Positions 10,795 through 63,180 of a stretch of DNA of 64,000 bases are shown piece by piece. The stretch lies in NCBI GenBank assembly GCA_046712825.1, contig JBKKCR010000096.1:590-64589 (forward strand), read 5' to 3'. The translations under genes were made by a program, and so were the position numbers. The notes beneath the pieces were generated by a model. That model had not been told where the DNA came from, made no database searches, and saw only the letters and a program-made list of their open reading frames with translations. The stretch's first letter is position 1. Each line of letters starts with the position of its first letter. Origin of the DNA: Actinomycetota bacterium. Lineage in GTDB: Bacteria > Actinomycetota > AC-67.

Positions 10795-11301
10795 CTACAG
10801 TGTCCTGCTCCATGCGAACTTGGCAACCGGCAGGCCGTCGGGCGGGCATTGGGCGAAGATTCGGGTGAAGAAGGTCCCGGCGCCCACCTCTCCGCCGTCG
10901 AAGATCAGGAACGGCGAGGCGACCGGGAAGGTCGTGAGCGGCGCCGCCCATCTCTCGGTCAGGATCAAGGGCACGAGGGTCGCGAAGCTGGTCAGAGTGA
11001 CAGTCACTTTGAGTTCCAGGTTCTGCACGAAGTCGGTCCCACCGCAACGGCCGAGCGTGTCCGAGGTCCCGGTGCCGCTGAACTCGACCGAATAGGTGCC
11101 GTGACCGTCTCCCTGACACGAGCCCTTCCCTAGGATGCTCCAGGGGCTCGCCGCCGGGCCGGGGGGGTTGGCCGTGAACTCCACAATGCCGGACGCGTCG
11201 CACGTGATCAGGCCGATATGGTTAGCCCCCGCCGTGCTCGGGAAGAGCGTGAGCAGCCCCAACGCCGCGAGCATCGCCGCGAGGCCCCGCCGGAATCTCA
11301 T
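10795..11301 (-). CDS. Small secreted hypothetical protein (paralog family B, copy 1)
   Basis: ORF 10795..11406; start re-assigned to MRFRRGLAAMLAALGLLTLFPSTAGA (frame arithmetic gives 11301). Shares GSCQGD..GTY...F.GAGTSDT.G.C......VQNL motifs with 24385..24900. Confidence 0.6.
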   Translation of the reverse strand: MRFRRGLAAMLAALGLLTLFPSTAGANHIGLITCDASGIVEFTANPPGPAASPWSILGKGSCQGDGHGTYSVEFSGTGTSDTLGRCGGTDFVQNLELKVTVTLTSFATLVPLILTERWAAPLTTFPVASPFLIFDGGEVGAGTFFTRIFAQCPPDGLPVAKFAWSRTL

Positions 11302-11698
11302 GGACTTGTCTCTCACCTGGACCCACCTCCCTGGTGGCATGCCCCCAACCCACCTCAATCCGTCGGGAACGCAAGCCATCCCTAGCCCTAAGCTACATTT
11401 CGCCACGAAGTGGACGTCCCCTGCTCAATCCGCGCCCGATTTTCGGCCTGGTGGCTGCGATGCCGGCTCAGGCCGTCTCTCCCGTTGCCGGACGACGAGG
11501 AACCAGGCCAAAGCTTCTGAACCGGCGTCGCTCGTCCCCGTTCTCTTCGAGGGAGGCGACCGGTTCCCTCTCGGACGGGGCGGTCGCGACGGCTGAGGGC
11601 GGACGAAGGGCCGCCACCCCTGAGTACGGGGTGGAGCGCCGCCGCCGTTCGGCTACGGGTACGGCGGAGGCAACAAGGGCCGCGCCGATGGAGAAGGG

Positions 11699-11842
11699 AT
11701 GTACACGTCGACCTGGGTCGTGCGGATCGACGCGCCGGTTGGGCCGGCGCGGGCGGACGTCATCGCCGCCGACGGCGAAAGCTTCGGCTACGACGACCCG
11801 CCCTTCTACGTGGCTGCCTCCAGTGCCGGCTGTCCGGGCTGA
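11699..11842 (+). CDS. Possible unlisted 47-aa ORF (MYTSTWVVRIDAPVGPARADVIAADGESFGYDDPPFYVAASSAGCPG)
   Basis: Not in the six-frame track (<60 aa). About 90% G/C at third codon positions over the whole ORF; GGAGAAGGG directly upstream of the ATG; lies in a 700-bp otherwise unassigned divergent intergenic region. Confidence 0.3.
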   Translation: MYTSTWVVRIDAPVGPARADVIAADGESFGYDDPPFYVAASSAGCPG

Positions 11843-12041
11843 TGGCCCCCAGGCCACCCGGCGAATAACCCCAGGTCAGACCCTCTCCCGGTTAGACCTT
11901 GCCCTGATTTGGGTACAAACGGAGCAACTCAGCCGGCTCAGGTGATAAAGCGAACATCCCGAAACAAGCGTTGCGGGAACTTCGCTCGAATCGTTGAACT
12001 AAGCAGATGTAGGCGTATCGTTGGTATCGGAGGTATGCAGG

Positions 12042-12308
12042 TTGCGGTCCAGGGCACGCGTCATCGTCGGCCTCGCAACGGCCTTGTGGCTGGCCGTCAT
12101 GCATTCGACCGCCTTCGCCCAGGGCTATCCCGGAGGCGGGAACACGCCCCCTCCCACGGTTGGTGGATCGAAGTTCTTCCCGGGCGACGACAAGCTTCCG
12201 CGTACGGGCACCGACCTTCTGCTGATCATCCTGGTCGCCCTCATCATCCTGTTCGTCGGGCTCGCGCTGCATCGGCTTTCTCGCCGCGCGAATCCAAGTG
12301 ACGGCTGA
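12042..12308 (+). CDS. Micro-protein with signal peptide, LPRTG motif, hydrophobic segment and basic tail (LPXTG-type sorting-signal architecture)
   Basis: Frame of ORF 12021..12308. The GC3 bias begins near TTG 12042, which sits 9 nt after GGAGG. Product: MRSRARVIVGLATALWLAVMHSTAFA|QGYPGGGNTPPPTVGGSKFFPGDDKLPRTG-TDLLLIILVALIILFVGLAL-HRLSRRANPSDG. Confidence 0.5.
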   Translation: MRSRARVIVGLATALWLAVMHSTAFAQGYPGGGNTPPPTVGGSKFFPGDDKLPRTGTDLLLIILVALIILFVGLALHRLSRRANPSDG

Positions 12309-14052
12309 TCGTTCCGCCGCTCTAAACGGCGCGCAACCTCCCGTTCCGATGCGTTCACGCGTACGCGTTCGCATCGTCTTGCTCGCGGGAGCAGCGATCG
12401 TTCTCATGATCGGAGGGCTCGCGCTGCTCGATGCGTTGGCGGTCGCGGATGACCTCCGCTCCGGTCGTGTCGCATTCAAGATGCTGACCGATCAAGGACT
12501 CACCGGCGACGGGAAGCTCGCCCTCCAAGTCGAGCGAGGCGCGGCGATATTCGCCGAAGCAGACCGGCGCGCGCAGGGAAGCGTGTGGCTCGACGGCCTC
12601 GGGAAGATCCCGTTCCTCGGACGGCCGGCCCGGTGGTTGCAAGCGGCATCGGATATCGCTGCACGACTCGGCGAAGAAGCGGCCGATTCCGTCGGGCGCA
12701 TCGAGCCGCGCCTGAAAGCTTCCGGGGAACCCAACGGGCGGCTCGAGATGATCTCGCTCGTCGAGACCGAGCTGGCGCGTCTTGGACGCCTCGTCGGCGA
12801 CATCCGCCTCCCATCCACCGGGGGGTTCCTGCCGCCGGTAAGCGCAGCCGATCGCGAGCTGCGCTCGGATCTTGCCCGGCTACGGCGAGCGCTCGTCGCC
12901 GGAACGGTGACCACTAAAGGACTTCGTGCGTTCCTCGCCGGACCGAGCACCTACGTGGTGCTCGCCGCGAACAACGCGGAGATGCGCTCCGGGGGGATGG
13001 TGCTCCAGGTCGGCGTCCTTCAGGCATCCGGGGGGCGGGTCCTCGCGGGCGGATTCCGATCGACGGGTGAAGCTGTGCTCCGCGATCCGGCGCCGTTGCC
13101 GCCGGAACTGGAGTCGCTGTACGGCTGGCTCGATCCCGACACCGAATGGAGGAACCTCGGCACCTCTCCCAACTTTCCGGGGATCGCGCCCGTCTACGCC
13201 TCGATGGCTCAGAAGAGCGGTCTGTCCCGCGTGGACGGCGTACTCCAGATCGACGTGCTCGGCGTTCGCGCCTTGCTCGAGGTGATCGGGCCGATCGAGG
13301 TCGACGGACGGCGGTACGATCCTTCCAACGTCGAGAAGCTCATGATGCACGACCTCTACGTCGCATACGGCGACGAGCAGTTCGAGCGTCGACACGAGTT
13401 CTCGCGCCTGGCGGCAGAGGCATTCCGTGTGCTGACCGAACGCAGCTCCGATCTCGGAAAGCTCGCCAAGGCGGTGAGCCGCGCGGCCGCGGGCAGGCAC
13501 CTGCTCGCATGGTCGGCGCGCCCGGACGAGCAGCGCGCCTGGGAGCGGCTGGGTATGGACGGGAGACTCGAGCGCGACGGCTTCATGGCGACGGTTCAGA
13601 ACCACGGCGGGAACAAGCTGGATTGGTACGTGCGGGCCTCGGTCGATTTGGCGGTCGAGCGTCCGGAAGGACGTTTCCGGCGCGTTCGCGCCAAAATAAA
13701 GATCGAGAACTTGACCCCGCCCGGCGAGCCTCCCTACGTCGCCGGGAATGGCGCCATCGTTCCGAAGAACGTCTACCGAGCTTTCGTCGCCGTTTACCTT
13801 CCGGGGTGGGCGACGAACGTCGAGCTCGTGGGGCGTGAGGCCCTCGTGATCGGAACCGACGGTCCGATGCGCGTCATCGCAACGCGACTCGACATCCGCC
13901 GCGCGGCCTCGGAGGTCGTGGAAGTCGTGTTCTCGGTGCCGCCGGGTATGGAACGGATCCTGCTGCTTCCGTCCGCTCGCCCGGCACCGGTTCCGTTCCG
14001 CATCGGCGATCGCACGGTCGACGATTCGGCCAAGCGTCTCGTGACCGTCTAG
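12298..14052 (+). CDS. DUF4012-like membrane-anchored protein
   Basis: N-terminal TM; the segment YVVLAANNAEMRSGGMVLQVGVLQASGGRV resembles the DUF4012 core (NNAExRxxGG). This family is commonly found in actinobacterial polysaccharide loci. Confidence 0.6.
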   Translation: MTADRSAALNGAQPPVPMRSRVRVRIVLLAGAAIVLMIGGLALLDALAVADDLRSGRVAFKMLTDQGLTGDGKLALQVERGAAIFAEADRRAQGSVWLDGLGKIPFLGRPARWLQAASDIAARLGEEAADSVGRIEPRLKASGEPNGRLEMISLVETELARLGRLVGDIRLPSTGGFLPPVSAADRELRSDLARLRRALVAGTVTTKGLRAFLAGPSTYVVLAANNAEMRSGGMVLQVGVLQASGGRVLAGGFRSTGEAVLRDPAPLPPELESLYGWLDPDTEWRNLGTSPNFPGIAPVYASMAQKSGLSRVDGVLQIDVLGVRALLEVIGPIEVDGRRYDPSNVEKLMMHDLYVAYGDEQFERRHEFSRLAAEAFRVLTERSSDLGKLAKAVSRAAAGRHLLAWSARPDEQRAWERLGMDGRLERDGFMATVQNHGGNKLDWYVRASVDLAVERPEGRFRRVRAKIKIENLTPPGEPPYVAGNGAIVPKNVYRAFVAVYLPGWATNVELVGREALVIGTDGPMRVIATRLDIRRAASEVVEVVFSVPPGMERILLLPSARPAPVPFRIGDRTVDDSAKRLVTV

Positions 14053-14058
14053 AGCGTC

Positions 14059-15540
14059 ATGAGGGCGAAGAGCTTGCTCGTCCGAACCCATATGGATGAG
14101 GTCTCTGCTCCTAGAAAGAGCGTTATCCCCCAGCAGATAGTCAGCTTCCTCCTTGCGTTGTTCGTCGGTGTTGCACCGATCGCTTCCTCGGTGCAGTCCG
14201 CATCCCCGGTCACCGTCGCACGGCTCGAGGTTCGGATCACCACGACTTCGCCGATGACGCAGGTGATCCTGAGACCGGGCCGGATCGCCGCTCAGCGTGC
14301 AATCTCAGTGCCCGACGACGTCAAGGTCACGCAACTGCCCGCCGGATGGGTGCTCAACACACCTGGGGGCCAGCTTCGCACCGTTGTGATGCGCGCCGTT
14401 TTCGAGGAAACCGCTCGCGCGTCGAAGATCCAGGTCGCCGTGCGGAAAGGTTTCGCGGGCAGGACGGACGTGGATATCCGTAACGTGTCCGGCGCTTCGT
14501 TCGCCGCTGCGCGGGTCGTGAACGATCTTCCGCGGTCCGCCACCGGAGCCAAGTCGAGCGACGGACTCACCGTGGTGCTCACCCGAACGCGCGCGCAGCT
14601 TCTCGGCTCGGCCAACCCCACTGCGATGCTTCCGGTCGATCCGCAGCGTCTCGTCCTTGCCGCGTACTACCCGTGGTACCCGGGGACGGAAGGCAGGTAC
14701 GCCAACCCGCAGTTCGCAGACCGTCCCGTGGATGGCCGCAGCACCGCGACATGGGCCGGGGTGCTTTCGATGACGCAGCAAGCCCGGCAGGTGGGGGTCG
14801 ACGGCTTCATCGTCTCGTGGGAAGGCGAGGGTTACTCGGGCAAGAGCTTCGACCTTGCGCTTACGGCCGCGCGTCAAACCGGCGGCGTTGTCTCTCCATA
14901 CCTCGAGATGCTGCGCGCGCGTGCTCCCGGCGACACGAGCGGCAAAGCCAACCCGCTCGTCGTTCTCGAGTGGCTGAGCGCGGTGCTGGGGAGGGCCGAC
15001 AACCCGGCGTTCTTGCGATCGGGTGGCATCCCGGTGGTCTTCGTCTGGCAGATGGGCAACCTGAGCCGTCTCGGCTGGCTGAACGTGCTCGGCGAGCTCG
15101 CCAAACAAGGGAAGGATGTGCGGCTCGTCGGCGACGCCGACAACTCCTACGGAGCGGTGCAGTGGGGCGTGCAGGAGTACAACCCGAACTTCATGTCGCC
15201 CGCCGATCTGGCGCGGCACAACCGCGACGTGATGCTCGACACGAGGTTGTTGGCGACGTCCGACGCGACGGCACCGCATGTGTACGTCGCGACCGTCTCT
15301 CCCGGCTACGACGATTCGAAGATCCCCGACCCCGCGCGCACGGCTCCGGTCGTCGCGCGCGGTGAGGCGGGCGAGCGGTACATCGCCTCATGGGATGCCG
15401 CTCTCGCAGCCCAGCCGGACTGGGTGATGATCACCTCATGGAACGAGTGGTTCGAGGGCACGGCCATCGAGCCGAGCATCGGCCACGGGGACCTTGCGCT
15501 CCGTCAAACCGCGGAACAGGCCGCGCGTTTCGCCGAATAG
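14059..15540 (+). CDS. Secreted GH99-like protein (endo-alpha-mannosidase / WbsX-related fold), copy 1
   Basis: YYPWYPG...VDGFIVSWEGEG... and C-terminal WVMITSWNEWFEGTAIEP (compare the GH99 catalytic NEWHE region). Paralog of 41030..42478. Confidence 0.55.
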   Translation: MRAKSLLVRTHMDEVSAPRKSVIPQQIVSFLLALFVGVAPIASSVQSASPVTVARLEVRITTTSPMTQVILRPGRIAAQRAISVPDDVKVTQLPAGWVLNTPGGQLRTVVMRAVFEETARASKIQVAVRKGFAGRTDVDIRNVSGASFAAARVVNDLPRSATGAKSSDGLTVVLTRTRAQLLGSANPTAMLPVDPQRLVLAAYYPWYPGTEGRYANPQFADRPVDGRSTATWAGVLSMTQQARQVGVDGFIVSWEGEGYSGKSFDLALTAARQTGGVVSPYLEMLRARAPGDTSGKANPLVVLEWLSAVLGRADNPAFLRSGGIPVVFVWQMGNLSRLGWLNVLGELAKQGKDVRLVGDADNSYGAVQWGVQEYNPNFMSPADLARHNRDVMLDTRLLATSDATAPHVYVATVSPGYDDSKIPDPARTAPVVARGEAGERYIASWDAALAAQPDWVMITSWNEWFEGTAIEPSIGHGDLALRQTAEQAARFAE

Positions 15541-24967: not shown

Positions 24968-26239
24968 CTAACGTTCCGCGTCGTTCCCGAGGGCGAACCG
25001 GTAATACGTGAGGCGGGCAACCCTTCCGTCCTCGAGGGTGACGGCCAAGATCCGGAGATGCAGAGACCCATCCGGGGCAGCGAACTTCATCACGGCCGTG
25101 GACGTCGGGACCCCCGGATGCAGATCGCCGGCCACCTGACGGCCGTCGAGCGCGGGGTCGTTCCGGGTCTCCTCGGCCAGTCGGTCCCACGCGGCGGCGC
25201 CGCGGCCCTTCCAATCGCCGCTCGGCGCGACGACCCGCACCAAGACCGACCCAAGGAGCGATTCGTTCAGCTCGTTCGCGCGCCGGCCGACGACCGCGGC
25301 GGCGATGCGGTCCACGGTCCTTTGGATATCCGTGATCTGTGAGACGTCGCTGCGCGCGCGATGCCCGCGCTCCCGGTCACGCAGCCGTCCACGCAAACGC
25401 CGCAGCGGCGGTTCGGGAAGCGGAGCCGCGGCACCGCTTGCCGACTTCGCGGCGAACTCCGGCTCGAGGTATCCCAAGCGCTCGAGGGTTCCGCCGGCGA
25501 CTTTCATAAGTGCGCTCAGGTCTGTCTCCGAGATCTTTTCGCGCCACTTCCCGGCACCCACCCGTCCGGTCGTCGGGTCCTGGTTGAAGGCGACCTTCGC
25601 CTCGCGGAGCGCCTCCTCGACCATCACCGGTGTCGCCGGGAGTCCGAACCATGCGAAGAGCTCCGCGACGTGAGCCTGTGGATCTACGAGCATCTCCTCG
25701 TAGCGGACGGTCCGAAATCGCTCCAGGCCCGCGCTCGCGGTTTCTGCGGCCTCGACCGAGCTACGCCACTCCATCGCCGCTTCCTCGAACGTGCGCGGAG
25801 CGTTCTTCCACGGCTGGGTCATGAGAGACCGTGCGACGTCGCGTCCATCACGGACGATGTTCAGGATCCACGCATCGGGATAGATCTCGCCGATCAGCTC
25901 GAGACACGTCACGTGCTCCGGGGTTCGCTCGGCCAGGCGCGTGGCGCCGGGGACGGTCTTGAGGAAGGGCAAGAAGACCCCGTCGCATAGGTTGCGCAGC
26001 GCGCGGGTCATCTCGCTTGGGTCCATGTACACGAAAGCCGTTCCCGGCGACCCCAGCACGCCGTGGTGGAAGCGCTCCCGGAGCGGCTTTATGCCTCGCG
26101 AGAAGAGATAGGTTTCCGAGGGCACCAAGGCCACCTCGGGGTGAGCGCCGAGGATGCGCTGTACCCAGTTGGTGCCGCTGCGGCGTGCGCCGACTAGGAA
26201 GATCATCCGGTCGCGCAGTGGTCCTTCGATGGAGCCCAT
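24968..26239 (-). CDS. Sulfotransferase domain (PAPS 5'-PSB loop GARRSGTNW) fused to a C-terminal ~150-aa NTF2/SnoaL-like domain
   Basis: MIFLVGARRSGTNWVQRILGAHPEV... then a RDV arginine region; C-terminal extension beyond a normal ~280-aa sulfotransferase. Confidence 0.6.
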   Translation of the reverse strand: MGSIEGPLRDRMIFLVGARRSGTNWVQRILGAHPEVALVPSETYLFSRGIKPLRERFHHGVLGSPGTAFVYMDPSEMTRALRNLCDGVFLPFLKTVPGATRLAERTPEHVTCLELIGEIYPDAWILNIVRDGRDVARSLMTQPWKNAPRTFEEAAMEWRSSVEAAETASAGLERFRTVRYEEMLVDPQAHVAELFAWFGLPATPVMVEEALREAKVAFNQDPTTGRVGAGKWREKISETDLSALMKVAGGTLERLGYLEPEFAAKSASGAAAPLPEPPLRRLRGRLRDRERGHRARSDVSQITDIQRTVDRIAAAVVGRRANELNESLLGSVLVRVVAPSGDWKGRGAAAWDRLAEETRNDPALDGRQVAGDLHPGVPTSTAVMKFAAPDGSLHLRILAVTLEDGRVARLTYYRFALGNDAER

Positions 26240-26272
26240 CCGATATGGTTCGATACCGGCGTCCTCAGCCCT

Positions 26273-26848
26273 TTACGGGCACGACCCGTTCCCTGCCGCG
26301 AGCGTGTAGACCAGATCGAACTGCCCCTCCTGGGTGATGACTCGCACCAAAGCCGGGCCCGACGGAGCGTTGGCGGGAGGTATCCAGACGCTGCGGAAAA
26401 CGCCGCTGCTGTCGGCGAACTTTGCGTCGTAGCCCGTCTTGTAGTCCGACTTCCCATCCACGCTGGAGCTGCCGTCCGAGTAGAGGGTGTTGAACCCGGC
26501 GGGACCTCCGGGGGCCGTTTGGACCGTGATGCCCTGGGTGTCGACGCCGGCACGCGCGCACGTGAGATCCAGCCGACCGGTCGATCCTCCGGTCGCGGTT
26601 GCCGAGGGCGACGGCTTCGTGGTCTTGGGGATATTCGTCGGTGTGCCGAAAGCGACGGGAGGCGACGACGTGGCGGGCGTCGTCGGCGTGGAGGTCCCGA
26701 CGGTATTTGTGGTCCCAAGGGCCGTCGGCTGCGCGCCCGGCTCCTTGTCGCCGCCGCATGCCGAAAGAACGATCGCGAGGGCCAGCACGCCCCCGCGAAT
26801 GAGGAAGCCGCCGCGCCGTCGTGAGGCTGAGTGATGAGAAGTGTTCAT
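26273..26848 (-). CDS. Lipoprotein (lipobox LSACGG) with Thr/Pro-rich linker
   Basis: ORF track; signal peptide plus Cys. Confidence 0.55.
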   Translation of the reverse strand: MNTSHHSASRRRGGFLIRGGVLALAIVLSACGGDKEPGAQPTALGTTNTVGTSTPTTPATSSPPVAFGTPTNIPKTTKPSPSATATGGSTGRLDLTCARAGVDTQGITVQTAPGGPAGFNTLYSDGSSSVDGKSDYKTGYDAKFADSSGVFRSVWIPPANAPSGPALVRVITQEGQFDLVYTLAAGNGSCP

Positions 26849-26928
26849 GGTTTCGGCCCTGAAGGGAGCCGAATCTTACACCTCGACCGGGGAGGACGCG
26901 GGTCGCCCGCCGGGACGCAGCCGGTACC

Positions 26929-27792
26929 ATGACCCGCATGCAACCCGTGGAAACGCCGCAACCGAGGCTGCCCACGTTCGTCATCATCGGCGCCATGAAA
27001 TCGGGGACGACCACGCTCGGGGCCTATCTCAATGCCCACCCCGACGCGTACTGCGCTCAAGAGCCGCACTTCTTCGACCAGAACTTCGAGCGAGGGGTGC
27101 CGTGGTACCGCGAACGCTTCCGGGACGCCGGGGCTGCGGCGGTGGTCGGCGAGAAGTCGCCTTCCTACATGTATCACCCGGATGCGATCCGGAGGCTCAC
27201 CGAGGTCTTGCCGGATGCCCGGCTGGTCGCGATCCTTCGGCATCCGGGTCACCGCGCATATTCGCACTACTGGCACGAGCGGCGGATCAAACAAGAGACG
27301 CTTTCCTTCGGCGACGCCCTCGACGCGGAGCCGCGCCGGCTGCGCGACTACGCGGACGGCCTGTGCCCCTTCGCCTACGTGGACCGCGGCCTCTACCTGG
27401 AGCAGCTCCGGCGCGTGGTCGGGTTCGCGCCGAGGGAGCGGCTGCTCGTGCTGCTCTTCGAGGATCTCCTGCGGGTGCCCGTGGAAACCTACTCCGAACT
27501 CGGTCGCTTCCTCGGCATCGACGGCTCTTTGGCCGCCCCGCCGGGCCCGGAGGAGTCGAACGCGTACCGCACCTATCATCCGGAATGGGCTTGGAAGCTG
27601 ATGCACCGGTATCGGCTCTGGGGACGCCTTCCGCGCCCGATCGCGGGACGGCTGTGGCGTGCGATGCAGCGCGAGGCGACGTATCCGCCGATCACCGAGG
27701 CGCAGCACGCGCGACTCCTCGATCGTTTCGCGGAACCCAACCGCGAGTTGGCCGATTGGTTAGGGCGCGACCTCTCCGAGTGGAGCGTCTGA
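26929..27792 (+). CDS. Sulfotransferase (heparan-sulfate/Sulfotransfer_3-like)
   Basis: PTFVIIGAMKSGTTTL (5'-PSB K-x-G-T-T) ... ILRHPGHRAYSHY (3'-PB region). Confidence 0.75.
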   Translation: MTRMQPVETPQPRLPTFVIIGAMKSGTTTLGAYLNAHPDAYCAQEPHFFDQNFERGVPWYRERFRDAGAAAVVGEKSPSYMYHPDAIRRLTEVLPDARLVAILRHPGHRAYSHYWHERRIKQETLSFGDALDAEPRRLRDYADGLCPFAYVDRGLYLEQLRRVVGFAPRERLLVLLFEDLLRVPVETYSELGRFLGIDGSLAAPPGPEESNAYRTYHPEWAWKLMHRYRLWGRLPRPIAGRLWRAMQREATYPPITEAQHARLLDRFAEPNRELADWLGRDLSEWSV

Positions 27793-27802
27793 ACTACCGG
27801 AG

Positions 27803-28633
27803 CTAGCCGATGCCCCAGCCGTCGAAGCCGGGCGGCATGTAGGCGCGCAGCCGCTCGACCGTCGGCTGCAGCCGCTCCCGAAGTTCCGACTCGACCGTGG
27901 CGGGAACCGCAACCGAGTCGGGAGCAGTGTGCCGCGTTGTGAGGCGCCGCAGCCTCCGCGCGATCGGTCGGGGCGTGGAGGGCCGTTCGGCGAGACGCCG
28001 CAGGGCCGGGATGCGATCGCCAAGGAGCGTCGGCGCAGGCTTGTCCTCGGTCCGGTGAAGCCTCTCGTCCAGGTTCGGCGGTGTCCGGCGGTCGTCCACC
28101 CCGATGAAGCCATAGATCGTTCGCAGGGTATCGGCGCGACGATCATCGAGCTCTTCGCTCGTCACGATCAGCAGCTGCTCACGAGGGAAGGACCCGAGGT
28201 ATCGCTCGATCTGGGTCGCGTAGTCGCTCAACGCGAACAGCATCGGGTTCGTCAAGAGGACTTCCGATGCCGGCCCACGTTCGCCGTACTCCGCAACATG
28301 GTGGAGGTACTGCGAAACCATGCGCCGGATGGGATGACGAACGACGTACACCATGCGCGCTTCGGGCAGCACCCGCTTGATGCGCTCGGGAACCCCCGGA
28401 AAGAACGGATGTTTCGTGTAGGAGGTCGAAGCCTCGCCTCGAGCGGCAGCGGCACCGCCCGATGCGAAGCAGCTCTCGTACCAGTCGACGCCGCGTTCCC
28501 AATTCTTGCCTTCGACGAAGAATTCGAGCTCCTTCGGCTCGGCCATGAACACGTCTGGGTGCGCTTGAAGGTACGCGTGGAGGCTCGTCGTGCCCGCCTT
28601 CATCGCGCCGATAACCAGGAAGGTCGGAAGCAT
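27803..28633 (-). CDS. Sulfotransferase (tandem duplicate of 28944..29777)
   Basis: MLPTFLVIGAMKAGTTSLHAYLQAHP...; start by frame arithmetic in ORF 27803..28774. Confidence 0.75.
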   Translation of the reverse strand: MLPTFLVIGAMKAGTTSLHAYLQAHPDVFMAEPKELEFFVEGKNWERGVDWYESCFASGGAAAARGEASTSYTKHPFFPGVPERIKRVLPEARMVYVVRHPIRRMVSQYLHHVAEYGERGPASEVLLTNPMLFALSDYATQIERYLGSFPREQLLIVTSEELDDRRADTLRTIYGFIGVDDRRTPPNLDERLHRTEDKPAPTLLGDRIPALRRLAERPSTPRPIARRLRRLTTRHTAPDSVAVPATVESELRERLQPTVERLRAYMPPGFDGWGIG

Positions 28634-28678
28634 CTGAGCTCGCACGATAACACCGGGTTGGGGGCGGCTGGGGGCCGA

Positions 28679-28790
28679 GACTACAGCACGATCGTCCGTG
28701 AGCTGATCGACCCGCGCACCATCGCGGTGACCTCCGCGAGATCGACGATCAGCGCGCCGGGAAGCTCCAGCCATCGCTGCCGGCGTCCCT
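28679..28790 (-). pseudogene. Relic of the 3' end of a GT2 gene, carried along with the sulfotransferase duplication
   Basis: ORF 28681..28941 ends ...RRQRWLELPGALIVDLAEVTAMVRGSISSRTIVL, near-identical to the C-terminus of the GT2 at 29778..30764 (...RRQRWLVLPGALLVDLAEVTAMVRGSISSRTIVL); DNA ~85% identical over ~110 bp. Confidence 0.5.
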
Positions 28791-28943
28791 CGACGACGAT
28801 CCGATCGACGACGACACGCCGACCGAACGGGGTGAGCCGCGCGTTACGATGAGCCACGAGAGCCTCCTCTCGGTTCGCACCTCGACAGCCCAAACCGTGC
28901 AGGGAGGCTCTCTCTTTGTAAAGAACGGCGCTGGGAACCACAA

Positions 28944-29777
28944 CTAGGCGATACCCCAGCCGTCGAATCCGGGCCCCATGTAGGCGCGCAGCTTCATGAT
29001 GTCGGGGCGGATCTGCGCGCGGATCCGCTCCTCGAGCTCCGCGGGGAGCTCTAGCGTGGACGTCGTCAGCGTCTTCGTGGTCACCCGGAAATGCAGGCGG
29101 CGGAGGGGAGCCGGAGTGAGCCTGGCGGCCGCGCGGTACAGACGGTTGTCGCGTATCTTTTCGATCGACTCCTTGCGGAGGTAGACCTCCCCGGTCGTGT
29201 TCGTCCGGCTCGACACCTCAGGCGGCGTCCAGCCCGGATCGACATCGAGGAAGGAGTAGACCGAGCGCATTGTCTCCACATACGAACCACGCAAGCCTTC
29301 GGTCGTGATGAGGAGGATCTGCTCGCGCGGGAAGTGACTCAGATAGTGCTCCAGTTGCCACGCGTACTGACTCGCGCGCACGTACCCGGGATGCTCACGC
29401 AAGGCCCGCTCCGGCGACCGCGACTCGCTTCCGGCGCGCAAGCGCTCCAGGTAGTGGGAGCGTAGACGCTTCATCGGGTCGCGTAACAGGTAGATGAGCT
29501 TCGCGTCCGGGATCAGGTCCGCGATCCGACCCGGCACTCCCGGATATGCATGGGCGAGTGTGTACTCCGGCGAGGCTTCTCCGATTGCCGTGGCGTCCCC
29601 AGCGCCGGCGAATTGGTCCAGGTACCAGTTCTGCCCGCGCCCCCAGTTCTTCTCCGCGATGAAATAAGCGAGCTCCTTTTCGGCCGGAGTGAAGATCTGC
29701 GGGTGGGCTCGCAGGTGGTGCCAGAGGCTGGTGGTCCCCGCCTTCATCGCGCCGATGACCAAGAAGGTCGGAAGCAT
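28944..29777 (-). CDS. Sulfotransferase
   Basis: MLPTFLVIGAMKAGTTSLWHHLRAHP...; ~50% identical to 27803..28633. Confidence 0.75.
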   Translation of the reverse strand: MLPTFLVIGAMKAGTTSLWHHLRAHPQIFTPAEKELAYFIAEKNWGRGQNWYLDQFAGAGDATAIGEASPEYTLAHAYPGVPGRIADLIPDAKLIYLLRDPMKRLRSHYLERLRAGSESRSPERALREHPGYVRASQYAWQLEHYLSHFPREQILLITTEGLRGSYVETMRSVYSFLDVDPGWTPPEVSSRTNTTGEVYLRKESIEKIRDNRLYRAAARLTPAPLRRLHFRVTTKTLTTSTLELPAELEERIRAQIRPDIMKLRAYMGPGFDGWGIA

Positions 29778-30764
29778 CTACAAGACGATCGTTCGTGAAC
29801 TGATCGATCCGCGCACCATCGCCGTAACCTCGGCGAGATCCACGAGAAGCGCGCCGGGAAGCACGAGCCAGCGCTGTCGCCGTCCCTGAGCGAGCGGCGC
29901 CGTCCGCACCCGATACCAGATCCAAGGGATCGCAAGCAGCAGCGCTGCGCGCTTGCGCGGCGCCAGGAGCAAACCGGCCATGGCGGCCAGCGCGGTCGGA
30001 TGAGACGGCTTCCAGAAGAGCCCTCCGTACAGATAGCCGCGCCCTTCCGGGTGCAACTTGACGACGCGGGGGATACCCGTCCATTTGAGCGCGTCCCGGG
30101 TTGCCGCGCGCAGGTCGCTCGGCTTCACGTCGTGATGCACGAGCGCCTCGGGCGCGAAGATGGCTTCCACGCCGCGGCGACGGATGCGCCAGCCGAGGTC
30201 GGTGTCTTCACCTCCGTGACGGCTGAAGGCCTCGTCGAAGCCGCCTGCTGCCTCGAGGTCGCTCCGGCGATAGAAGATGTTGCACGTCTCGAAGTAGGTG
30301 GCGTCCCTGACCGTGATCGTCCGTGAGAACGGGCCTTCAAGGTGCTGCTGGGCCGGGTCGGGGAGCGTGCGGCCGACGACGATCCGGGGACCCGCCCCCA
30401 GAGCTTCCAGACCTCGCTCGAGCCACGACGGCGTCGGGACGCAATCGTCGTCGGTGAACGCGACGACCGGTGCACGGGCACGGCCCCAGCCGATGTTGCG
30501 CGCGGCCGCCTGCCGCCGGTTGCGGCCGTCTCCGAGGATCTCGATGGACAACGTGCTGCGTCGCGCCAGGCCGGCGAGCAGCTCCACGGTTCCGTCGGTG
30601 GAGCCGTCGTCGACGAAGATCACCTCGAAGGAGCTCGGTGGAAGCGTCTGGGCCTCGAGCGCGCCGATGAGCCGCGGGAGGAGCTCGGCGCGATTGTAGG
30701 TTGCGATCACGACCGAGACGCGCGGGGCATCGCCGTTCGCGCTGCCGCGCTTCAGGCGCGCCAT
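29778..30764 (-). CDS. Glycosyltransferase family 2
   Basis: VSVVIATYNRAELLPRLIGALEAQT...EVIFVDDGSTDGT...AFTDDDCVP; start MARLKRG by frame arithmetic. Confidence 0.8.
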   Translation of the reverse strand: MARLKRGSANGDAPRVSVVIATYNRAELLPRLIGALEAQTLPPSSFEVIFVDDGSTDGTVELLAGLARRSTLSIEILGDGRNRRQAAARNIGWGRARAPVVAFTDDDCVPTPSWLERGLEALGAGPRIVVGRTLPDPAQQHLEGPFSRTITVRDATYFETCNIFYRRSDLEAAGGFDEAFSRHGGEDTDLGWRIRRRGVEAIFAPEALVHHDVKPSDLRAATRDALKWTGIPRVVKLHPEGRGYLYGGLFWKPSHPTALAAMAGLLLAPRKRAALLLAIPWIWYRVRTAPLAQGRRQRWLVLPGALLVDLAEVTAMVRGSISSRTIVL

Positions 30765-31591
30765 GACGACAAGTCCCTCCCGAGAAGCTGTTCGAGGCCG
30801 GCGATCTGGTCCGCGTATGCCTGGACGAGGCGGCGGCGAAGCTCGGGATCCATCGGCTCGTACGTGCTGCGGTCCGGACGCACGTTCATCGCGTTGATAC
30901 GCCAAGCCCACGAGCGCGGGATGCGACGCTTCAGGCGGGCCTTCAACACCGCCTCTCTCAGACGCACGGAGCGGACGCGCATCCGCGGATTGTAGGTCTT
31001 GCCCAGGTTGTCGGGCCGGTACCCGTCGTCGACGCCGAGGAATCGGCAGGCGTCGCCATACACGCCCGAAGCGTCCGACGCCAGATCCTCGAATAGCATC
31101 ACCATCAACGCCGAGGGCGGAAAGAGGCCGTGGAGTTTCCGGATCTGTTCCAGGTATCTGCCTCGAGCGAGGTAGAAGCCGAACGGTGGCGCCGTCCCCG
31201 CAAGCTCCTCGTCCACGACTTGAGCGAGCGGACGCTTTTCGCGGCCGATCGCACGGAGGTGGAGGAACTGCGAGTAGATCCGCTCCGCGGGATGCCGCAG
31301 GATCGCGATCATGCGGACGTCGGGCAGTAGCTTCGCCATCCGGTCCGGAACGTCCGGATGGGCCATGTACCCGGGGGTCGCCTCACCGATGGCGGGTTTG
31401 CCGGCACCGGCAGCGAACTGCGCTCGGTACCACTCTTCTCCCGCCTCGTAGCGATGAGGGTTGTCGAAGAAGTGAAGTTCCTTCTCCGAGGGGATGAAGA
31501 CCTCGGGGTGTTCGCGCAACCATGCCGCGAGCGAGGTGGTTCCGGCTTTCATCGCACCGATGATGAGGAAGTTCGGCAGCGGCGCGGTCAT
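30752..31591 (-). CDS. Sulfotransferase
   Basis: LPNFLIIGAMKAGTTSLAAWLREHP ... MIAILRHPAERIYSQF. Confidence 0.75.
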   Translation of the reverse strand: MTAPLPNFLIIGAMKAGTTSLAAWLREHPEVFIPSEKELHFFDNPHRYEAGEEWYRAQFAAGAGKPAIGEATPGYMAHPDVPDRMAKLLPDVRMIAILRHPAERIYSQFLHLRAIGREKRPLAQVVDEELAGTAPPFGFYLARGRYLEQIRKLHGLFPPSALMVMLFEDLASDASGVYGDACRFLGVDDGYRPDNLGKTYNPRMRVRSVRLREAVLKARLKRRIPRSWAWRINAMNVRPDRSTYEPMDPELRRRLVQAYADQIAGLEQLLGRDLSSWRA

Positions 31592-31604
31592 CTCGTTGCC
31601 CGCC

Positions 31605-32477
31605 TCATGGGACGCGTCCCTCGACGAACGGCACCTCGAAGACCTTGTCGTGGGCGACGGGGCCGTGGCCGAAGTATCCGTCCTCACCGAAGAGCTCACC
31701 GTGGTCGGACGTCACAACGACCCAGGTGTTGCTCGGGACGAGGTCGAAGAGCCGCTCGACGACGCCGTCTAAATAGCGGACGGCGTTGATCTGACGGTCG
31801 CGCAGCTCGGCGAGCTTCGCGTCGTCGAAGAACTCCGGTTCGCCTTCGGCGCCCGGCTGGTCGTCGAGTCGTTTGAAGACGCCGTGCACGCCCGATATCC
31901 GCGGCCAGGTCGAGGGGTCCTCATCGGGAAGCGCGTAGGGGTAGTGCGTCTCGCCGGTGTTCAACAGGTAGAAGGAAGGCCGCTCTTCCGAGAACGTCAT
32001 CTGGTCGAGCATGGCCGCCATGTCGTTGTGCTTCGGCATCAGCTCGTATGAGTCGAAGTCGCGGTTGATTGGCGTATGCCGGTTCAGAACCGGCATCGAC
32101 ACCATCGCATGCGTCGCGTAGCCGAGCTCCTTGCGAAGGAAGGTCGGCATGAAGATCGACGGAAGGAGCCGCTTGAACTCGATGCCTTGGACGCCGATCC
32201 GTTCGCTGTACCGGGTGAAGTCTTGCTTGTAGTACTCGGACGCGTACACACGAGGAGGGCTCGTATGAGGGAGGAGACCCATCAGCAAGTTGTAATGCGA
32301 CGGCGCGGTCCACGACGCATAGCTCCACCGCCGTTCGGGCTTTCCGAGGAGGCTCAGGGTCTTGGGGGAAGCGGCGACCCACGAGTCGTAGCGGCAAGAG
32401 TCGAAGATGACGACGACGAGGTTCCGCGCGCCCTCGGGGGGGCGCGGGCGTTCGGGCGCGGCTTCGGAGGGATCCAT
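31605..32477 (-). CDS. Alkaline-phosphatase-superfamily NPP/phosphodiesterase-like enzyme (second copy)
   Basis: LVVVIFDSCRYDSW, TAPSHYNLLMGLLPH (T-x-P-S-H), VVVTSDHGELFGEDGYFGHG; start at MDPSEA. Confidence 0.65.
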   Translation of the reverse strand: MDPSEAAPERPRPPEGARNLVVVIFDSCRYDSWVAASPKTLSLLGKPERRWSYASWTAPSHYNLLMGLLPHTSPPRVYASEYYKQDFTRYSERIGVQGIEFKRLLPSIFMPTFLRKELGYATHAMVSMPVLNRHTPINRDFDSYELMPKHNDMAAMLDQMTFSEERPSFYLLNTGETHYPYALPDEDPSTWPRISGVHGVFKRLDDQPGAEGEPEFFDDAKLAELRDRQINAVRYLDGVVERLFDLVPSNTWVVVTSDHGELFGEDGYFGHGPVAHDKVFEVPFVEGRVP

Positions 32478-36784: not shown

Positions 36785-38533
36785 TCATGCCGATGCTGCG
36801 CTGGGCTCCCCGGATCCGATGTAGCCCTCACGCTCGAGGTGCAACACGATCTGCTGGGCGGCTTCCTCAGGCGTGAGCTCGGTGGTATCGATCGTGATGT
36901 CGGCGTCCACGGGCTCCTCGTATGGATCCGAGATCCCGGTAAACTCCTTGAGGATCCCGGCGCGGGCCTTGGCGTAGAGCCCCTTCCGGTCGCGCTCCTC
37001 GCAGATCTCGAGCGGCGTCGCGACGTGGATCAGCACGAACCCGCCCATCGGCTCGATCATCCCGCGCACCTCTTTGCGGATGCTGTCGTAGGGCGCGATC
37101 GGGGCACAGATCGCTATGCCGCCGTTCTTGGTGATCTCGGACGCCACATAGCCGATGCGACGGATGTTGATGTCGCGATGCTCGCGGGAGAAGCCGAGCT
37201 CCGAAGACAGGTTCTTGCGAACCAGATCCCCATCGAGCATCGTGACCGGCCGCCCGCCCATCTCGAGGAACTTCACGAACAGCGCGTTCGCGATCGTCGA
37301 CTTCCCCGATCCCGACAGCCCGGTGAAGAAGACTGTGAGTCCCTGCTTGTGCCGCGCCGGATGCGTCTTGCGTAGCTCGGTGACGACCTCGGGGAACGAG
37401 AACCAGCTCGGGATATCGCGACCGTCCCCGAGCCGTTCGCGCAGCTCGGTTCCCGAGATATCGAGCACGCGCTCGCCTTCGGGCACCTCGTCCTCGGGGA
37501 AGTACGTGTCCCGGTCGGGCACGTAGAGCATCTGGCGGAACGGCACCATCCCGACGCCCAGTTCCTCCTCGTACTTCCGGAGCAGGTCCTGCGCGTCGTA
37601 GGGGCCGTAGTAGGGCGTTCCCTCGGGATCCTTGCCCGGTCCGGCGTGGTCGCGTCCCACGATGAAATGGGTGCAGCCGTGGTTCTTGCGGATGATCGCG
37701 TGCCAGACGGCCTCACGCGGTCCGGCCATGCGCATCGCCAGCGGCAGCAACGCCAGCTTCGCCGAGTACGACGGATAGCGATGCATGAGCGCCTCATAAC
37801 AGCGGACGCGTGTGTAGTGGTCGACGTCGCCGGGCTTGGTCATCCCGACCACCGGGTGCACGAGTAGGTTCGCCTCGAGCTCCTTGGAGGCGCGCAGCGT
37901 CAGCTCGAAATGCGCGCGGTGCATCGGGTTCCGCGTCTGGAACGCGACGATCTGCCGCCACCCCAGTCGCGAGAACTCCTCTCGGAGCTGCCGTGGCCCG
38001 AGGCGAAGTCCCGTGTAGTCGTAATGGATCGGCAGTTGGAGCCCCTCGATCTTGCCGCCAACGAACCACGCGTGCGTGCGGTCGGCCAGGTGCCCGACGC
38101 CGGGATGAGAGGTGTCGGTGTTTCCGTACACCTGCTCTGCCTCGGCCATCCGATCCGGCTTCCACACGTCGGTGATGTGGAGGACGGCGAGCATGACGCC
38201 TTCGGGATCCCGCAGCGCGAGCGCAGCGCCCGACCCGAGGCCCTTCGCGACGTCCTCGGTGACGTCGAGCACGACGGGGATGGGCCACAGCGTGCCGTCC
38301 GCCAAGCGCATGCGCTCGCAGACCTCCCGATGGTCCGCCTCCCCCATGAACCCCTCAAGCGGAGAGAAGCCGCCGGTGAGCAAGAGTTCCAGGTCGCAGA
38401 TCTGGCGGGGGGTCAGGTCCCAGGACGGCCATTCGCGGGAGGCGACCTTGAGCTGTGCCGAGCGGTTCTCGTCGGTCATGAGGTCGACGAGGCTGCCGCC
38501 GTGGGGCGGGATGAGATGGTCTTGGGCGCTCAC
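36785..38533 (-). CDS. Bifunctional sulfate adenylyltransferase (ATP sulfurylase) / adenylylsulfate kinase = PAPS synthase
   Basis: N-terminal sulfurylase (QTRNPMHRAHFEL, HFIVGRDHAGPG) plus C-terminal APS kinase (GLSGSGKSTIA Walker A, DGDLVRKNLSSELGFS). Confidence 0.85.
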   Translation of the reverse strand: MSAQDHLIPPHGGSLVDLMTDENRSAQLKVASREWPSWDLTPRQICDLELLLTGGFSPLEGFMGEADHREVCERMRLADGTLWPIPVVLDVTEDVAKGLGSGAALALRDPEGVMLAVLHITDVWKPDRMAEAEQVYGNTDTSHPGVGHLADRTHAWFVGGKIEGLQLPIHYDYTGLRLGPRQLREEFSRLGWRQIVAFQTRNPMHRAHFELTLRASKELEANLLVHPVVGMTKPGDVDHYTRVRCYEALMHRYPSYSAKLALLPLAMRMAGPREAVWHAIIRKNHGCTHFIVGRDHAGPGKDPEGTPYYGPYDAQDLLRKYEEELGVGMVPFRQMLYVPDRDTYFPEDEVPEGERVLDISGTELRERLGDGRDIPSWFSFPEVVTELRKTHPARHKQGLTVFFTGLSGSGKSTIANALFVKFLEMGGRPVTMLDGDLVRKNLSSELGFSREHRDINIRRIGYVASEITKNGGIAICAPIAPYDSIRKEVRGMIEPMGGFVLIHVATPLEICEERDRKGLYAKARAGILKEFTGISDPYEEPVDADITIDTTELTPEEAAQQIVLHLEREGYIGSGEPSAASA

Positions 38534-41029: not shown

Positions 41030-42478
41030 ATGCGCGTGCGATATCGGATCGGGGCAGTCGTCGCCGTACTTGCTTTGCTTGTCACCGCCATGGGCATTCC
41101 ATCGGCGACGGCGAGTGGCAGTCCATATGTGACACGGCTCCGGGTCGAGCTGTCGGGAACCAGCGACTGGCAATACCTCCGTATCTCCGACAGCGGGATC
41201 GCCAGCTACCACCCAGACGTCCTCGCTTCGGGCACGACGGTAAGCCGTGGCCCGAACACCATGCTCATCGCCGGTCCGGGATACCAGAACGTTTCGGCGA
41301 CGATCAGCATGGTCGTGGAGACGTACAACGCGAACTCGTTCAACGTATCGCTGGTTAAAGGCAAGATCGGCGAAGCCCATATGAAGCTCTACCGGCTCAA
41401 CGACTCCACGCCCGTACAGATCCTGAGCTTGAACAACTACGAGACCAGCGGCGATGCGACGGTTTCCGCCACCGTCTCGCGGGCGACGCTGGTAGCCAAC
41501 GGGTACACCATGCCGCGTATGGACCCTCGGCGTCTGGTTCTCTCTTTCTACTACCCCTGGTTCGGTGAAGGCTCGTTCGACAAGGGACCCTGGTACGACA
41601 CTCCGACGGGACCCTACGACACCAAGAAACCCAGCGAGGTCTCCAAGATCGTGGCCCAAGCCCACTACGCGGGCGTCGACGGCTTCGTCGTGTCCTGGGA
41701 CGACGTCGGAGATCACACCGCCGCGTTCGACCTCGCGATGAATGAGCTCGCGACCCGTTCGATGTACGTCTCCCCGGTGATCGAGCTGCTCATGTTCAAG
41801 ACGTCCTCGGGAGCTTTCGACGTGCCGAAGATCATCGACACGATGAAGAAGGCGCTCCAGCGCTCTTCCAACCCCGCGTTCTTGAAGGTCGGCTCGCGGC
41901 CCGTGCTGTGGACCTTCGGGATGTGGGAGATGGACGTTCCGACCTGGACTGCGATCCGCGCCGCGGTGGTCTCCGCCGGATACAACCCCTTCTTCATAGG
42001 CGAACCCATGTCGACGGAGTGGGGATTGGACGGCACGTACTACTACACCCCGAACGGCATGACGTACGACGGCATCGTCTCGAAGTTCAGCCAGATCAAG
42101 CGTCAGCTGCGTTACGACGCGCAGGTGAACCCGCTCGTCAAGCAGCGCCTGTGGGCGGCACCGGTGTCCCCCGGCCAGAACCTGTCGTACACGTCGCCGC
42201 TGTTCCCGCAGCATCAGGACCGTAAAGACGGGGAGCGCTACGACCAGACCTGGAGTGCGGCCCTCACCTCGGAGCCCGAATGGATGCTCGTCACTTCGTG
42301 GAACGAATGGTTCGAAGCGACGCACATCACCCCGAGCGAGAAGTTCGGATCGAGGGCACTCAACCAGACGGCGGCGTGGAGCGATGCTTTCCACAACCCG
42401 CAGCCTTGGGGCCAGGGGGAGAGCCAGGGTGGCTTCTTGCCCATCAACCTCCCGCTGAAATTCGGCCCGGGCAAGTAG
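41030..42478 (+). CDS. Secreted GH99-like protein, copy 2
   Basis: Signal peptide; RRLVLSFYYPWFGEG...VDGFVVSWDDVGDH...WMLVTSWNEWFEATHITP; paralog of 14059..15540. Confidence 0.55.
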   Translation: MRVRYRIGAVVAVLALLVTAMGIPSATASGSPYVTRLRVELSGTSDWQYLRISDSGIASYHPDVLASGTTVSRGPNTMLIAGPGYQNVSATISMVVETYNANSFNVSLVKGKIGEAHMKLYRLNDSTPVQILSLNNYETSGDATVSATVSRATLVANGYTMPRMDPRRLVLSFYYPWFGEGSFDKGPWYDTPTGPYDTKKPSEVSKIVAQAHYAGVDGFVVSWDDVGDHTAAFDLAMNELATRSMYVSPVIELLMFKTSSGAFDVPKIIDTMKKALQRSSNPAFLKVGSRPVLWTFGMWEMDVPTWTAIRAAVVSAGYNPFFIGEPMSTEWGLDGTYYYTPNGMTYDGIVSKFSQIKRQLRYDAQVNPLVKQRLWAAPVSPGQNLSYTSPLFPQHQDRKDGERYDQTWSAALTSEPEWMLVTSWNEWFEATHITPSEKFGSRALNQTAAWSDAFHNPQPWGQGESQGGFLPINLPLKFGPGK

Positions 42479-62833: not shown

Positions 62834-63180
62834 GTGAGCTGTCGGACGTCGATCCGGCGGCGTTCACGATCCGCACCGTCCCCGAACGATTCGCCTCGAT
62901 CGGCGATCCCCTCGCCGGCATCGACGACCACGCATACTGGCTGGATGCTCTGCTCGAGCTGGCGGACCGTCAGGAGAGCGCCGGTGCCGAGGACGCCCCC
63001 TGGCCACCGCAGTTCCCCAAGGCTGAAGGGGAACCCAGGCGGGTCGCGCCGTCGCGAGCGAAAGATATGCGAAACAATCAGGCTGCGGAGGTTGGCGCCG
63101 AGAAGAAGGCTCCGGTCAAGAAGGCTTCGATGAAGAAGGCGTCCGCAGGGACGACGAAGTCGAAGAGGAAGGCCATATGA
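62834..63180 (+). pseudogene. Ku-protein C-terminal remnant (no start codon, N-terminal core absent) ending in a Lys-rich tail
   Basis: Frame open from 62728 (the 5' part overlaps the STAS gene): ...DVDPAAFTIRTVPERFASIGDPLAGIDDHAYWLDALLELADRQESAGAED... resembles the mycobacterial Ku C-terminus (DRYHDTYQEQLQELIDTKLEGG...AED); tail KKAPVKKASMKKASAGTTKSKRKAI; strong GC3 bias; stop overlaps the ligase start (ATGA). Confidence 0.4.

Follow-up and report, generated by a model that had tools for sequence, protein, structure and literature searches.

Why would a glycan locus open with a gene for a precursor of only 88 residues, its reading frame running into that of a DUF4012 membrane protein? The question is raised by a stretch of 64,000 nucleotides from an Actinomycetota bacterium of lineage AC-67 (GenBank assembly GCA_046712825.1, contig JBKKCR010000096.1, positions 590 to 64,589 of the forward strand), referred to below as the window. 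Positions 12,042 to 12,308 of the window hold the mini-gene, which codes for a mini-protein with a signal peptide and a C-terminal sorting signal of the LPXTG type. Once processed, the mini-peptide probably serves as a carrier, linked to the wall, of the polysaccharide that the neighboring genes produce. By analogy with a known glycosylation pathway, the whole chain of events would run from Sec export through glycan loading by DUF4012 to sortase anchoring of a 29-residue peptide, and we give this chain a probability of roughly one half. The argument starts from the following features.

12029–12033, plus strand: Shine-Dalgarno sequence GGAGG, 8 nt ahead of the TTG start, read from the sequence
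12042–12308 (stop included), plus strand: coding sequence of the mini sorting-signal protein, 88 aa, from the open reading frame (ORF) listing, the GC content at third codon positions (GC3), homologs and the ratio of nonsynonymous to synonymous substitution rates (dN/dS)
12042–12119, plus strand: signal peptide, residues 1–26 (MRSRAR / VIVGLATALWLAVM / HSTAFA), with predicted cleavage between AFA and Q, from inspection and alignments
12120–12206, plus strand: predicted mature peptide Q27–T55, QGYPGGGNTPPPTVGGSKFFPGDDKLPRT, 29 aa, Gly/Pro/Thr-rich, including Y29 and a TPPPT stretch
12126–12128, plus strand: conserved Y29, within the mature peptide
12195–12209, plus strand: LPRTG pentapeptide, residues 52–56, with predicted sortase cleavage at T55/G56; weak TIGR01167 and PF00746 matches cover residues 49–82
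12216–12269, plus strand: hydrophobic membrane segment L59–L76 of the sorting signal, from sequence and alignments
12270–12305, plus strand: basic cytoplasmic tail HRLSRRANPSDG, whose last 8 nt, together with the stop codon, overlap the DUF4012 start

The mini-gene is a real, protein-coding and conserved gene. It reads from the TTG at 12042 to the stop codon at 12306–12308, 88 codons in all, and because an in-frame TAA stands at 12000–12002, 42 nt before the start, the frame is not part of a longer gene; the preliminary description had named such an embedding as an outcome that would count against it, and the TAA excludes it. GC content by codon position (0.65/0.53/0.79) is close to that of the DUF4012 gene (0.73/0.49/0.79), and two competing frames were ruled out as coding by their GC3, namely the overlapping plus-strand ORF at 11909–12301 (0.50) and the antisense ORF at 11892–12479 (0.63). 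The spacer 5′ of the mini-gene is about 190 bp long with 55% GC; around the mini-gene, no Rfam family reached its threshold and no promoter- or terminator-like sites were found. A word-indexed protein search returned 23 homologs of 69–103 aa, most of them 87–88 aa, with E-values down to 3e-47. All 23 come from uncultured Actinomycetota; NCBI labels one of them, and JGI another, as an LPXTG cell wall anchor protein. When 1.84 billion representatives were searched with a profile, 43 further relatives appeared, most of 71–126 aa, which brings the homologs in uncultured Actinomycetota to about 65. Against six orthologous loci, codon alignments gave dN/dS of 0.23–0.46, with dS near saturation, and the mature segment is the most constrained part (0.04–0.28). 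Could the frame still be spurious, or belong to the 5′ end of DUF4012 or some other gene? Its shortness, its TTG start and its absence from some annotations would fit; that reading is nonetheless already refuted and keeps practically no weight, because the upstream stop, the Shine-Dalgarno site, the GC3, the homologs, called independently in many assemblies at 87–88 aa, and the purifying selection with saturated synonymous sites all speak for a protein-coding gene. Two Pfam candidates for the product were also rejected, both far under cut-off: TrbC/VirB2 pilin (E 0.012), where the match covers residues 2–28 and thus only the signal peptide, and DUF6480 (E 0.037).

The architecture of the precursor agrees with what had first been described from this DNA, a tiny secreted protein with LPRTG, a transmembrane segment and a basic tail. 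By inspection, the n-region of the signal peptide is basic (RSRAR), its hydrophobic core spans 14 residues, and the AFA-Q junction follows; neither A26 nor Q27 varies within the close family. An AxA site followed by Q occurs in at least 71 of the 120 family and partner proteins, so most would start with Gln after cleavage. We infer cleavage at both ends of the mature part, after A26 and after T55; the 29 residues between these sites match the earlier estimate of about 28. In the close family this core is nearly invariant (Q-x-YPGGG-x-TPPPTVGG-x-KFFPGDD), and Y29-P30 is conserved in at least 90% of 56 diverse sequences. A Thr-Asp pair links LPRTG to the 18-residue hydrophobic stretch, and the protein ends 12 residues past it with the HRLSRR-containing tail, of which ALHRLSRRA is kept in the close family.

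The mini-protein is small, some 25 residues of its core are conserved, and its N-terminal Gln could become pyroglutamate, all of which would also suit the precursor of a released signaling or antimicrobial peptide, its C-terminal region then serving only as a membrane-retention or leader element. We hold this to be very improbable, since the nearby genes include no protease for maturation, no modification enzyme and no dedicated peptide exporter, the wider family keeps the sorting signal and not the core, and the constant partner is a DUF4012 gene in glycan loci.

How good is the sorting signal? Across the 56 diverse sequences, T55 and G56 are the only invariant residues, and 30 of the 56 match TIGR01167 at E ≤1. 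Pentapeptides of the close family include LPKTG, MPRTG, IPRTG, LSGTG, LGRTG, LTKTG, TARTG and PADTG, with L, M, I, V, T, P or F at the first position and P, A, G, S or T at the second, while distant members carry the canonical LAFTG, LPFTG, LPRTG or LARTG. The LPXTG pentapeptide is not strictly kept in the close family, in which T-G is its only invariant part. Over the wider family, the membrane segment and the tail share only generic sorting-signal features. Tiny LAXTG proteins are already a curated kind, the NCBI model NF058583 "LAXTG motif-containing small protein", yet judging from the scores this model does not cover the mini-protein family: the mini-protein has no match at E ≤10, and its relatives reach 10.9–27 bits, confined to the sorting signal, where the 54-position model requires 65. 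The view that such mini-substrates are unusual thus did not hold, given the curated NF058583 and the finding, detailed below, that most sampled DUF4012 genes have a neighbor of this type.

Two other identities for the mini-protein were tried and rejected. A sortase-polymerized pilin is not supported, as the YPGG motif has no Lys and K44 is conserved in the close family only; the sortases that adjoin DUF4012 genes are of class E, and on the class C model they score 73–92 bits against a cut-off of 160. A PEP-CTERM/exosortase substrate was discarded as well, as the motif is LPRTG and there is no PEP motif; among the 25 NCBIfam families listed for the scan of the 56 members, the sole exosortase-related match is a weak one, of a single member to the XrtV accessory-protein model NF045607 (E 0.0067). 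Separately, one small protein next to a DUF4012 gene (L085, 9354–9707) carries LAFSG, with Ser for Thr, ahead of its membrane segment, a possible variant of the sorting motif.

Downstream, the mini-gene runs into its partner, for which two features matter here.

12298–14052, plus strand: DUF4012 gene, 584 aa, GTG start (PF13196, E 5.6e-26), overlapping the mini-gene by 11 nt
12940–13557, plus strand: LCP-like alpha/beta domain of DUF4012, about residues 215–420, from a domain model with a predicted local distance difference test score (pLDDT) of 88.8 and Foldseek

The 11-nt overlap is kept in five related loci (L001, L002, L004, L006 and L008) and suggests translational coupling of the two genes. 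This start and this overlap recur in DUF4012 homologs of 581–591 aa, and these lengths together with the conserved overlap argue for the GTG at 12298 as the true start. A database copy of the protein (P0024, NCBI, 100% identical) is called at 548 aa, 36 residues shorter (without 12298–12405), and this call would cut into the DUF4012 transmembrane helix. Relatives also keep the gene order of ATP-binding cassette (ABC) transporter, mini-gene, DUF4012 and a GH99-like gene. In agreement with both the overlap and the Pfam content of the locus, the mini-gene does head the glycan locus, as had been noted from the sequence.

Is the pairing peculiar to this lineage? A metagenome scan with a DUF4012 profile gave 80 loci; these are the ones most similar to the query profile, and the frequencies that follow may not hold for all DUF4012 genes. 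A scripted search of the 80 loci defined a partner as an ORF ending in xxxTG, a transmembrane segment and a basic tail. DUF4012 genes no more than 30–34% identical to that of the window also have such a neighbor, a small protein in which a signal peptide and low-complexity stretch precede LPITG, LPFTG or LPTTG, a membrane segment and a basic tail. A sorting-signal ORF is adjacent on the same strand in 60 of the 80 loci, upstream in 25 and downstream in 35, and in 32 of the 38 loci with both flanks visible; six more loci have one either on the other strand or no farther than 1.5 kb away. The density of such ORFs is 0.42/kb in the DUF4012 flanks versus 0.006/kb elsewhere in the same loci, an enrichment of about 68-fold, and the window holds no second sorting-signal ORF. 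The pairing of mini-proteins with DUF4012 is frequent, not universal: the distant mini-protein P0171, for instance, does not adjoin a DUF4012 gene.

The 62 partners mostly carry L[AP]xTG (about 50 of 62), and their mature parts have a median of about 39 aa, 62% of the residues being T, G, A, P or S. One feature beyond the sorting signal is common to the whole set: 91 of 113 proteins have a Tyr close to the N-terminus of the mature part, as YPG, YTG or YVG, and Tyr is 12 times denser there than in the remaining peptide; the sequences are related, so the p-value of this contrast is indicative only. In five of the 80 loci (L074, L075, L076, L078 and L079), a class E sortase gene lies beside DUF4012 and the small protein, scoring 161–189 bits on NF033747 (cut-off 160) and bearing an LTLTTC motif.

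Two further observations concern the N-terminus of the partners. A subfamily that starts with CYTGC (L074, L076, L077, L078, L094 and L095) could form a disulfide loop around the conserved Tyr, and three of its loci (L074, L076 and L078) are also among those with an adjacent class E sortase. On plasmid NZ_CP108391.1 of Streptomyces sp. NBC_01320 (L096, 3042–6367), we find in order a LAATG protein, DUF4012, a small ORF and a glutaminyl-peptide cyclotransferase. The LAATG protein is of sortase-substrate type, 204 aa long, with the mature N-terminus QPPSPSCFAYPP; the cyclotransferase fits the N-terminal Gln of the partners and suggests pyroglutamate capping.

What would DUF4012 do with such a peptide? 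The full-length AlphaFold (AF2) model, with a pLDDT of 87.5, has an N-terminal transmembrane helix that runs into a long helical bundle (residues 19–214), followed by an alpha/beta domain (217–420) and a beta-sandwich (428–583). A Foldseek search with the full model gave nothing at E ≤0.001, with the LCP (LytR-CpsA-Psr) structure 3nxh ranked second. When the central domain was modeled alone, the top 27 PDB matches were all LCP enzymes, including TagT/U/V, Cps2A, MsrR, BrpA, Staphylococcus aureus LcpA and Actinomyces oris LcpA (5v8c), with E-values from 4e-5, probabilities up to 1.00 and TM-scores of 0.33–0.53. On these models, the central domain of DUF4012 has the predicted alpha/beta fold of LCP enzymes. 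Its alignment holds invariant N226, E228, M229, R230, D319, Y354, R364, R400 and H401. A greedy hhalign alignment of low confidence is collinear; in it, Y354 and R364 coincide with the Tyr and Arg that never vary in the LCP region Y-x-R-x-R...R-x-x-RQ, a placement that we treat as a lead only. A profile of DUF4012 searched against PDB sequences returned coiled-coil noise and no LCP, and a hidden Markov model built from PDB-derived LCP sequences found no canonical LCP gene in 821 kb, comprising the window and the fetched loci.

A precedent for the suggested cooperation exists in A. oris, where lcpA and gspA lie side by side and work jointly: at the membrane, the LCP phosphotransferase LcpA glycosylates GspA, a protein of LPXTG type, which SrtA, a housekeeping sortase of class E, then anchors to peptidoglycan (PMC6381275). 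In both systems a gene of LPXTG type adjoins the gene of an LCP-fold membrane protein, and the proposed logic is alike. The mini-protein, however, has about 29 residues when processed (median of about 39 aa among the partners) and no folded domain; DUF4012 matches no LCP sequence model and adds a helical stalk and a C-terminal beta-sandwich; and the pair heads a complete glycan biosynthesis and export locus.

We hypothesize that the mini-protein is a dedicated carrier or linker peptide, in a miniature analog of the GspA-LcpA-SrtA pathway. Sec would export the precursor and signal peptidase would cut after AFA26, leaving an N-terminal Gln that may cyclize to pyroglutamate, while the C-terminal sorting signal (LPRTG, hydrophobic segment, HRLSRR) would hold the peptide in the membrane. 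There it could be acted upon by the co-translated DUF4012, a predicted single-pass protein with a helical stalk and an extracytoplasmic LCP-fold domain, which would move the polysaccharide from its polyprenyl-pyrophosphate carrier to a hydroxyl of the peptide. Candidate acceptors are the nearly invariant Tyr29 and the threonines of TPPPT. The polysaccharide would come from the downstream locus, with its Bac_transf initiator, GT2 and GT4 glycosyltransferases, methyl- and sulfotransferases and Wzm/Wzt export, and would probably be methylated and sulfated. Finally, a housekeeping sortase of class E type, encoded elsewhere, would cut T55/G56 and attach the resulting glycopeptide of 29 residues to peptidoglycan. 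That a sortase exists in the source genome, that glycan is transferred and which residue accepts it are what we infer here. The idea of a wall-linked tag or primer, put forward in the preliminary description, gains from the LCP-like fold, the DUF4012 pairing and the class E sortase adjacency, while its sortase step stays a prediction. A broader version is possible but tentative: DUF4012 may be a divergent branch of the LCP fold whose acceptor is a coupled carrier peptide of 30–40 residues, loaded possibly at the N-proximal Tyr below a pyroglutamate cap, with class E sortase grafting the resulting mini-proteoglycan onto the wall.

The surrounding genes bear on where the glycan would come from. 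The following ones are needed here.

14059–15540, plus strand: GH99/GH71/WbsX-like protein (Pfam), third gene of the module, with synteny in L003, L004, L006 and L008
38730–40845, plus strand: Wzm (ABC-2 permease) and Wzt (ATPase with a Wzt_C domain), exporter of lipid-linked glycan (Pfam)
43325–45145, plus strand: Wzy_C (O-antigen-ligase-like) membrane protein, alternative candidate ligase (PF04932, E 9e-10)
50269–51744, minus strand: Bac_transf initiating phosphoglycosyl transferase (PF02397, E 2.8e-66)

The glycan locus extends to about 54 kb of the window and contains many GT2 and GT4 glycosyltransferases, methyltransferases and two sulfatase-like proteins. A Bac_transf transferase is part of it, and a polyprenyl-pyrophosphate-linked glycan donor is therefore implied; by its gene content, the locus is predicted to make a lipid-linked, ABC-exported glycan. 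Next to Wzm/Wzt the locus also has six genes for sulfotransferases and one for a fused ATP-sulfurylase/APS-kinase (PAPS synthase), at 24971–31699 and 36788–38533; they point to a cell-surface polysaccharide that is sulfated, an uncommon feature in an actinobacterium. A second GH99/GH71/WbsX-like paralog is found at 41030–42478, and it is the first copy, at 14059–15540, that forms the constant third gene in the lineage.

Upstream of the mini-gene, the window differs from its relative L001. There, the mini-gene is preceded by a lipoprotein of about 193 aa, of which the window retains only the C-terminal 71 residues (11624–11842, plus strand, 87% identity). A 203-aa secreted-protein gene (10795–11406, minus strand) occupies the place where the N-terminal part would lie, which suggests a local rearrangement, and a paralog, 28% identical, is encoded at 26276–26848 (minus strand). 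Near the window end are genes for a bacterial type IB topoisomerase and an ATP-dependent DNA ligase (61168–62331, minus strand, and 63177–63998, plus strand), unrelated to the mini-gene.

Several observations weigh against the carrier proposal. As to the sorting signal, the mini-protein scores just under the cut-offs of both models (14.6 bits against 15.9 for TIGR01167 and 16.5 against 20 for PF00746). The first two motif positions drift in the closest relatives (TARTG, PADTG, LGRTG, LSGTG and LTKTG), which is unusual for sortase substrates. Within the close family, the membrane segment and the tail GLALHRLSRRA are conserved beyond the need of a disposable sorting signal. Neither Pfam searches of the predicted genes nor a TLxTC motif scan found a sortase in the 64-kb window, just as had been reported from the sequence. 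Each of these points favors an alternative in which the mini-protein stays uncleaved, as a type I membrane micro-protein that acts as subunit, adaptor or regulator of DUF4012 through contacts between transmembrane segments and a short ectodomain, with xxxTG as a structural or ancestral remnant; the tight translational coupling to a single-pass membrane protein, which suggests stoichiometric co-production, adds to its appeal. We nevertheless consider it unlikely. The T-G pair never varies, nor does its distance from the membrane segment, across 56 otherwise unalignable sequences, distant partners carry textbook LAxTG or LPxTG, class E sortase genes adjoin in five loci, and the conservation of membrane segment and tail does not extend, past generic features, to the wider family.

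As to DUF4012, the likeness to LCP enzymes is structural only, its TM-scores are moderate, and it comes from a predicted model. Pfam on DUF4012 gives PF13196 and no LCP (PF03816) match, and hhalign of the DUF4012 and LCP alignments returns probabilities of 0.5–1.6%. Since these sequence comparisons are not significant, it is the fold search that carries the relationship. If the fold is taken as modeled, DUF4012 would share with LCP enzymes (PF03816; TagTUV, Cps2A, LcpA) the single-pass anchor and an extracytoplasmic alpha/beta domain whose fold and order of secondary-structure elements agree; both belong to wall-polysaccharide loci and have invariant Arg, Tyr and acidic residues. They differ in that DUF4012 has no significant sequence similarity, a moderate TM-score and an added stalk and beta-sandwich, and any catalytic equivalence is putative.

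As to the partnership, DUF4012 genes stand in glycan contexts and have no LPXTG partner on two Rhodococcus plasmids (L097 and L098) and one Streptomyces plasmid (L099), and because of these the partner is not obligatory. Such genes would suit a sortase-anchored peptide that carries no glycan, and which instead decorates the wall, spaces it, or recruits or positions DUF4012, with DUF4012 attaching the polysaccharide directly to peptidoglycan. Canonical LCP enzymes indeed attach polymers to N-acetylmuramic acid (MurNAc) (PMC6381275), and the small LAXTG proteins are curated as a kind of their own in NF058583. We find this rather improbable, given the very strong adjacency with overlapping reading frames and the make-up of the partners: low-complexity sequences rich in Ser, Thr and Pro with a position-specific Tyr fit an acceptor or linker better than a folded domain.

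Lastly, the Wzy_C-type ligase of the locus could be the glycan-attaching enzyme in place of DUF4012. S-layer O-glycosylation in Paenibacillus and Geobacillus relies on an ABC-transporter-dependent glycan and a Wzy_C-type O-oligosaccharyltransferase, WsfB/WsaB, with Tyr, Thr or Ser acceptors (see also PMC2943079). By analogy with that system, including its Tyr O-glycosylation, the protein at 43325–45145 is an alternative candidate: the locus also combines Wzm/Wzt, methyltransferases and a Wzy_C protein with a surface protein whose Tyr or Thr may be the acceptor. The S-layer acceptor, however, is a large, self-assembling, non-covalently held protein, whereas here a mini-peptide bearing a covalent sorting signal would take that role, with DUF4012, and not the Wzy_C protein, as its constant partner.

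Compared with the sortase substrates covered by TIGR01167, PF00746 and NF058583, the mini-protein has the same layout, with a signal peptide, a pentapeptide that closes with T-G, a hydrophobic segment and, at the C-terminus, a tail rich in Arg, and it shares its very small size with NF058583. It differs in that the close family tolerates residues other than L at the first motif position and other than P or A at the second, and in that the mini-protein family has its own N-terminal Q-x-Y-P-G-G motif. Haft et al. are said to have described, in 2006, PEP-CTERM/exosortase proteins in exopolysaccharide loci; these too are small, low-complexity, Ser/Thr-rich secreted proteins with a C-terminal motif, a membrane segment and a basic tail, tied to polysaccharide loci, but the motif is PEP instead of xxxTG, the enzyme an exosortase instead of a sortase, and the hosts are Gram-negative.

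A tiny protein of LPXTG type is by itself an already known kind. In the literature that we searched, DUF4012 is mentioned in passing in three papers, without a mechanism, and we found no description of its systematic coupling with mini-proteins, of its LCP-like fold or of its occasional linkage with class E sortases. DUF4012 is a widespread domain of unknown function in the polysaccharide loci of Gram-positive and candidate phyla radiation (CPR) bacteria, and the fold link to LCP enzymes, together with the gene-order link to mini L[AP]xTG proteins and class E sortases, provides a concrete and testable function for it. The mini-peptides could also serve glyco-engineering as minimal natural substrates of sortases and LCP enzymes. 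Some bacteria may fix their wall polysaccharides by means of a short sortase-anchored peptide and not directly on MurNAc, which would generalize the single precedent of GspA in A. oris. If true, this would be a third, peptide-mediated route for the attachment of wall polysaccharides in Gram-positive bacteria, widespread in uncultured Actinomycetota.

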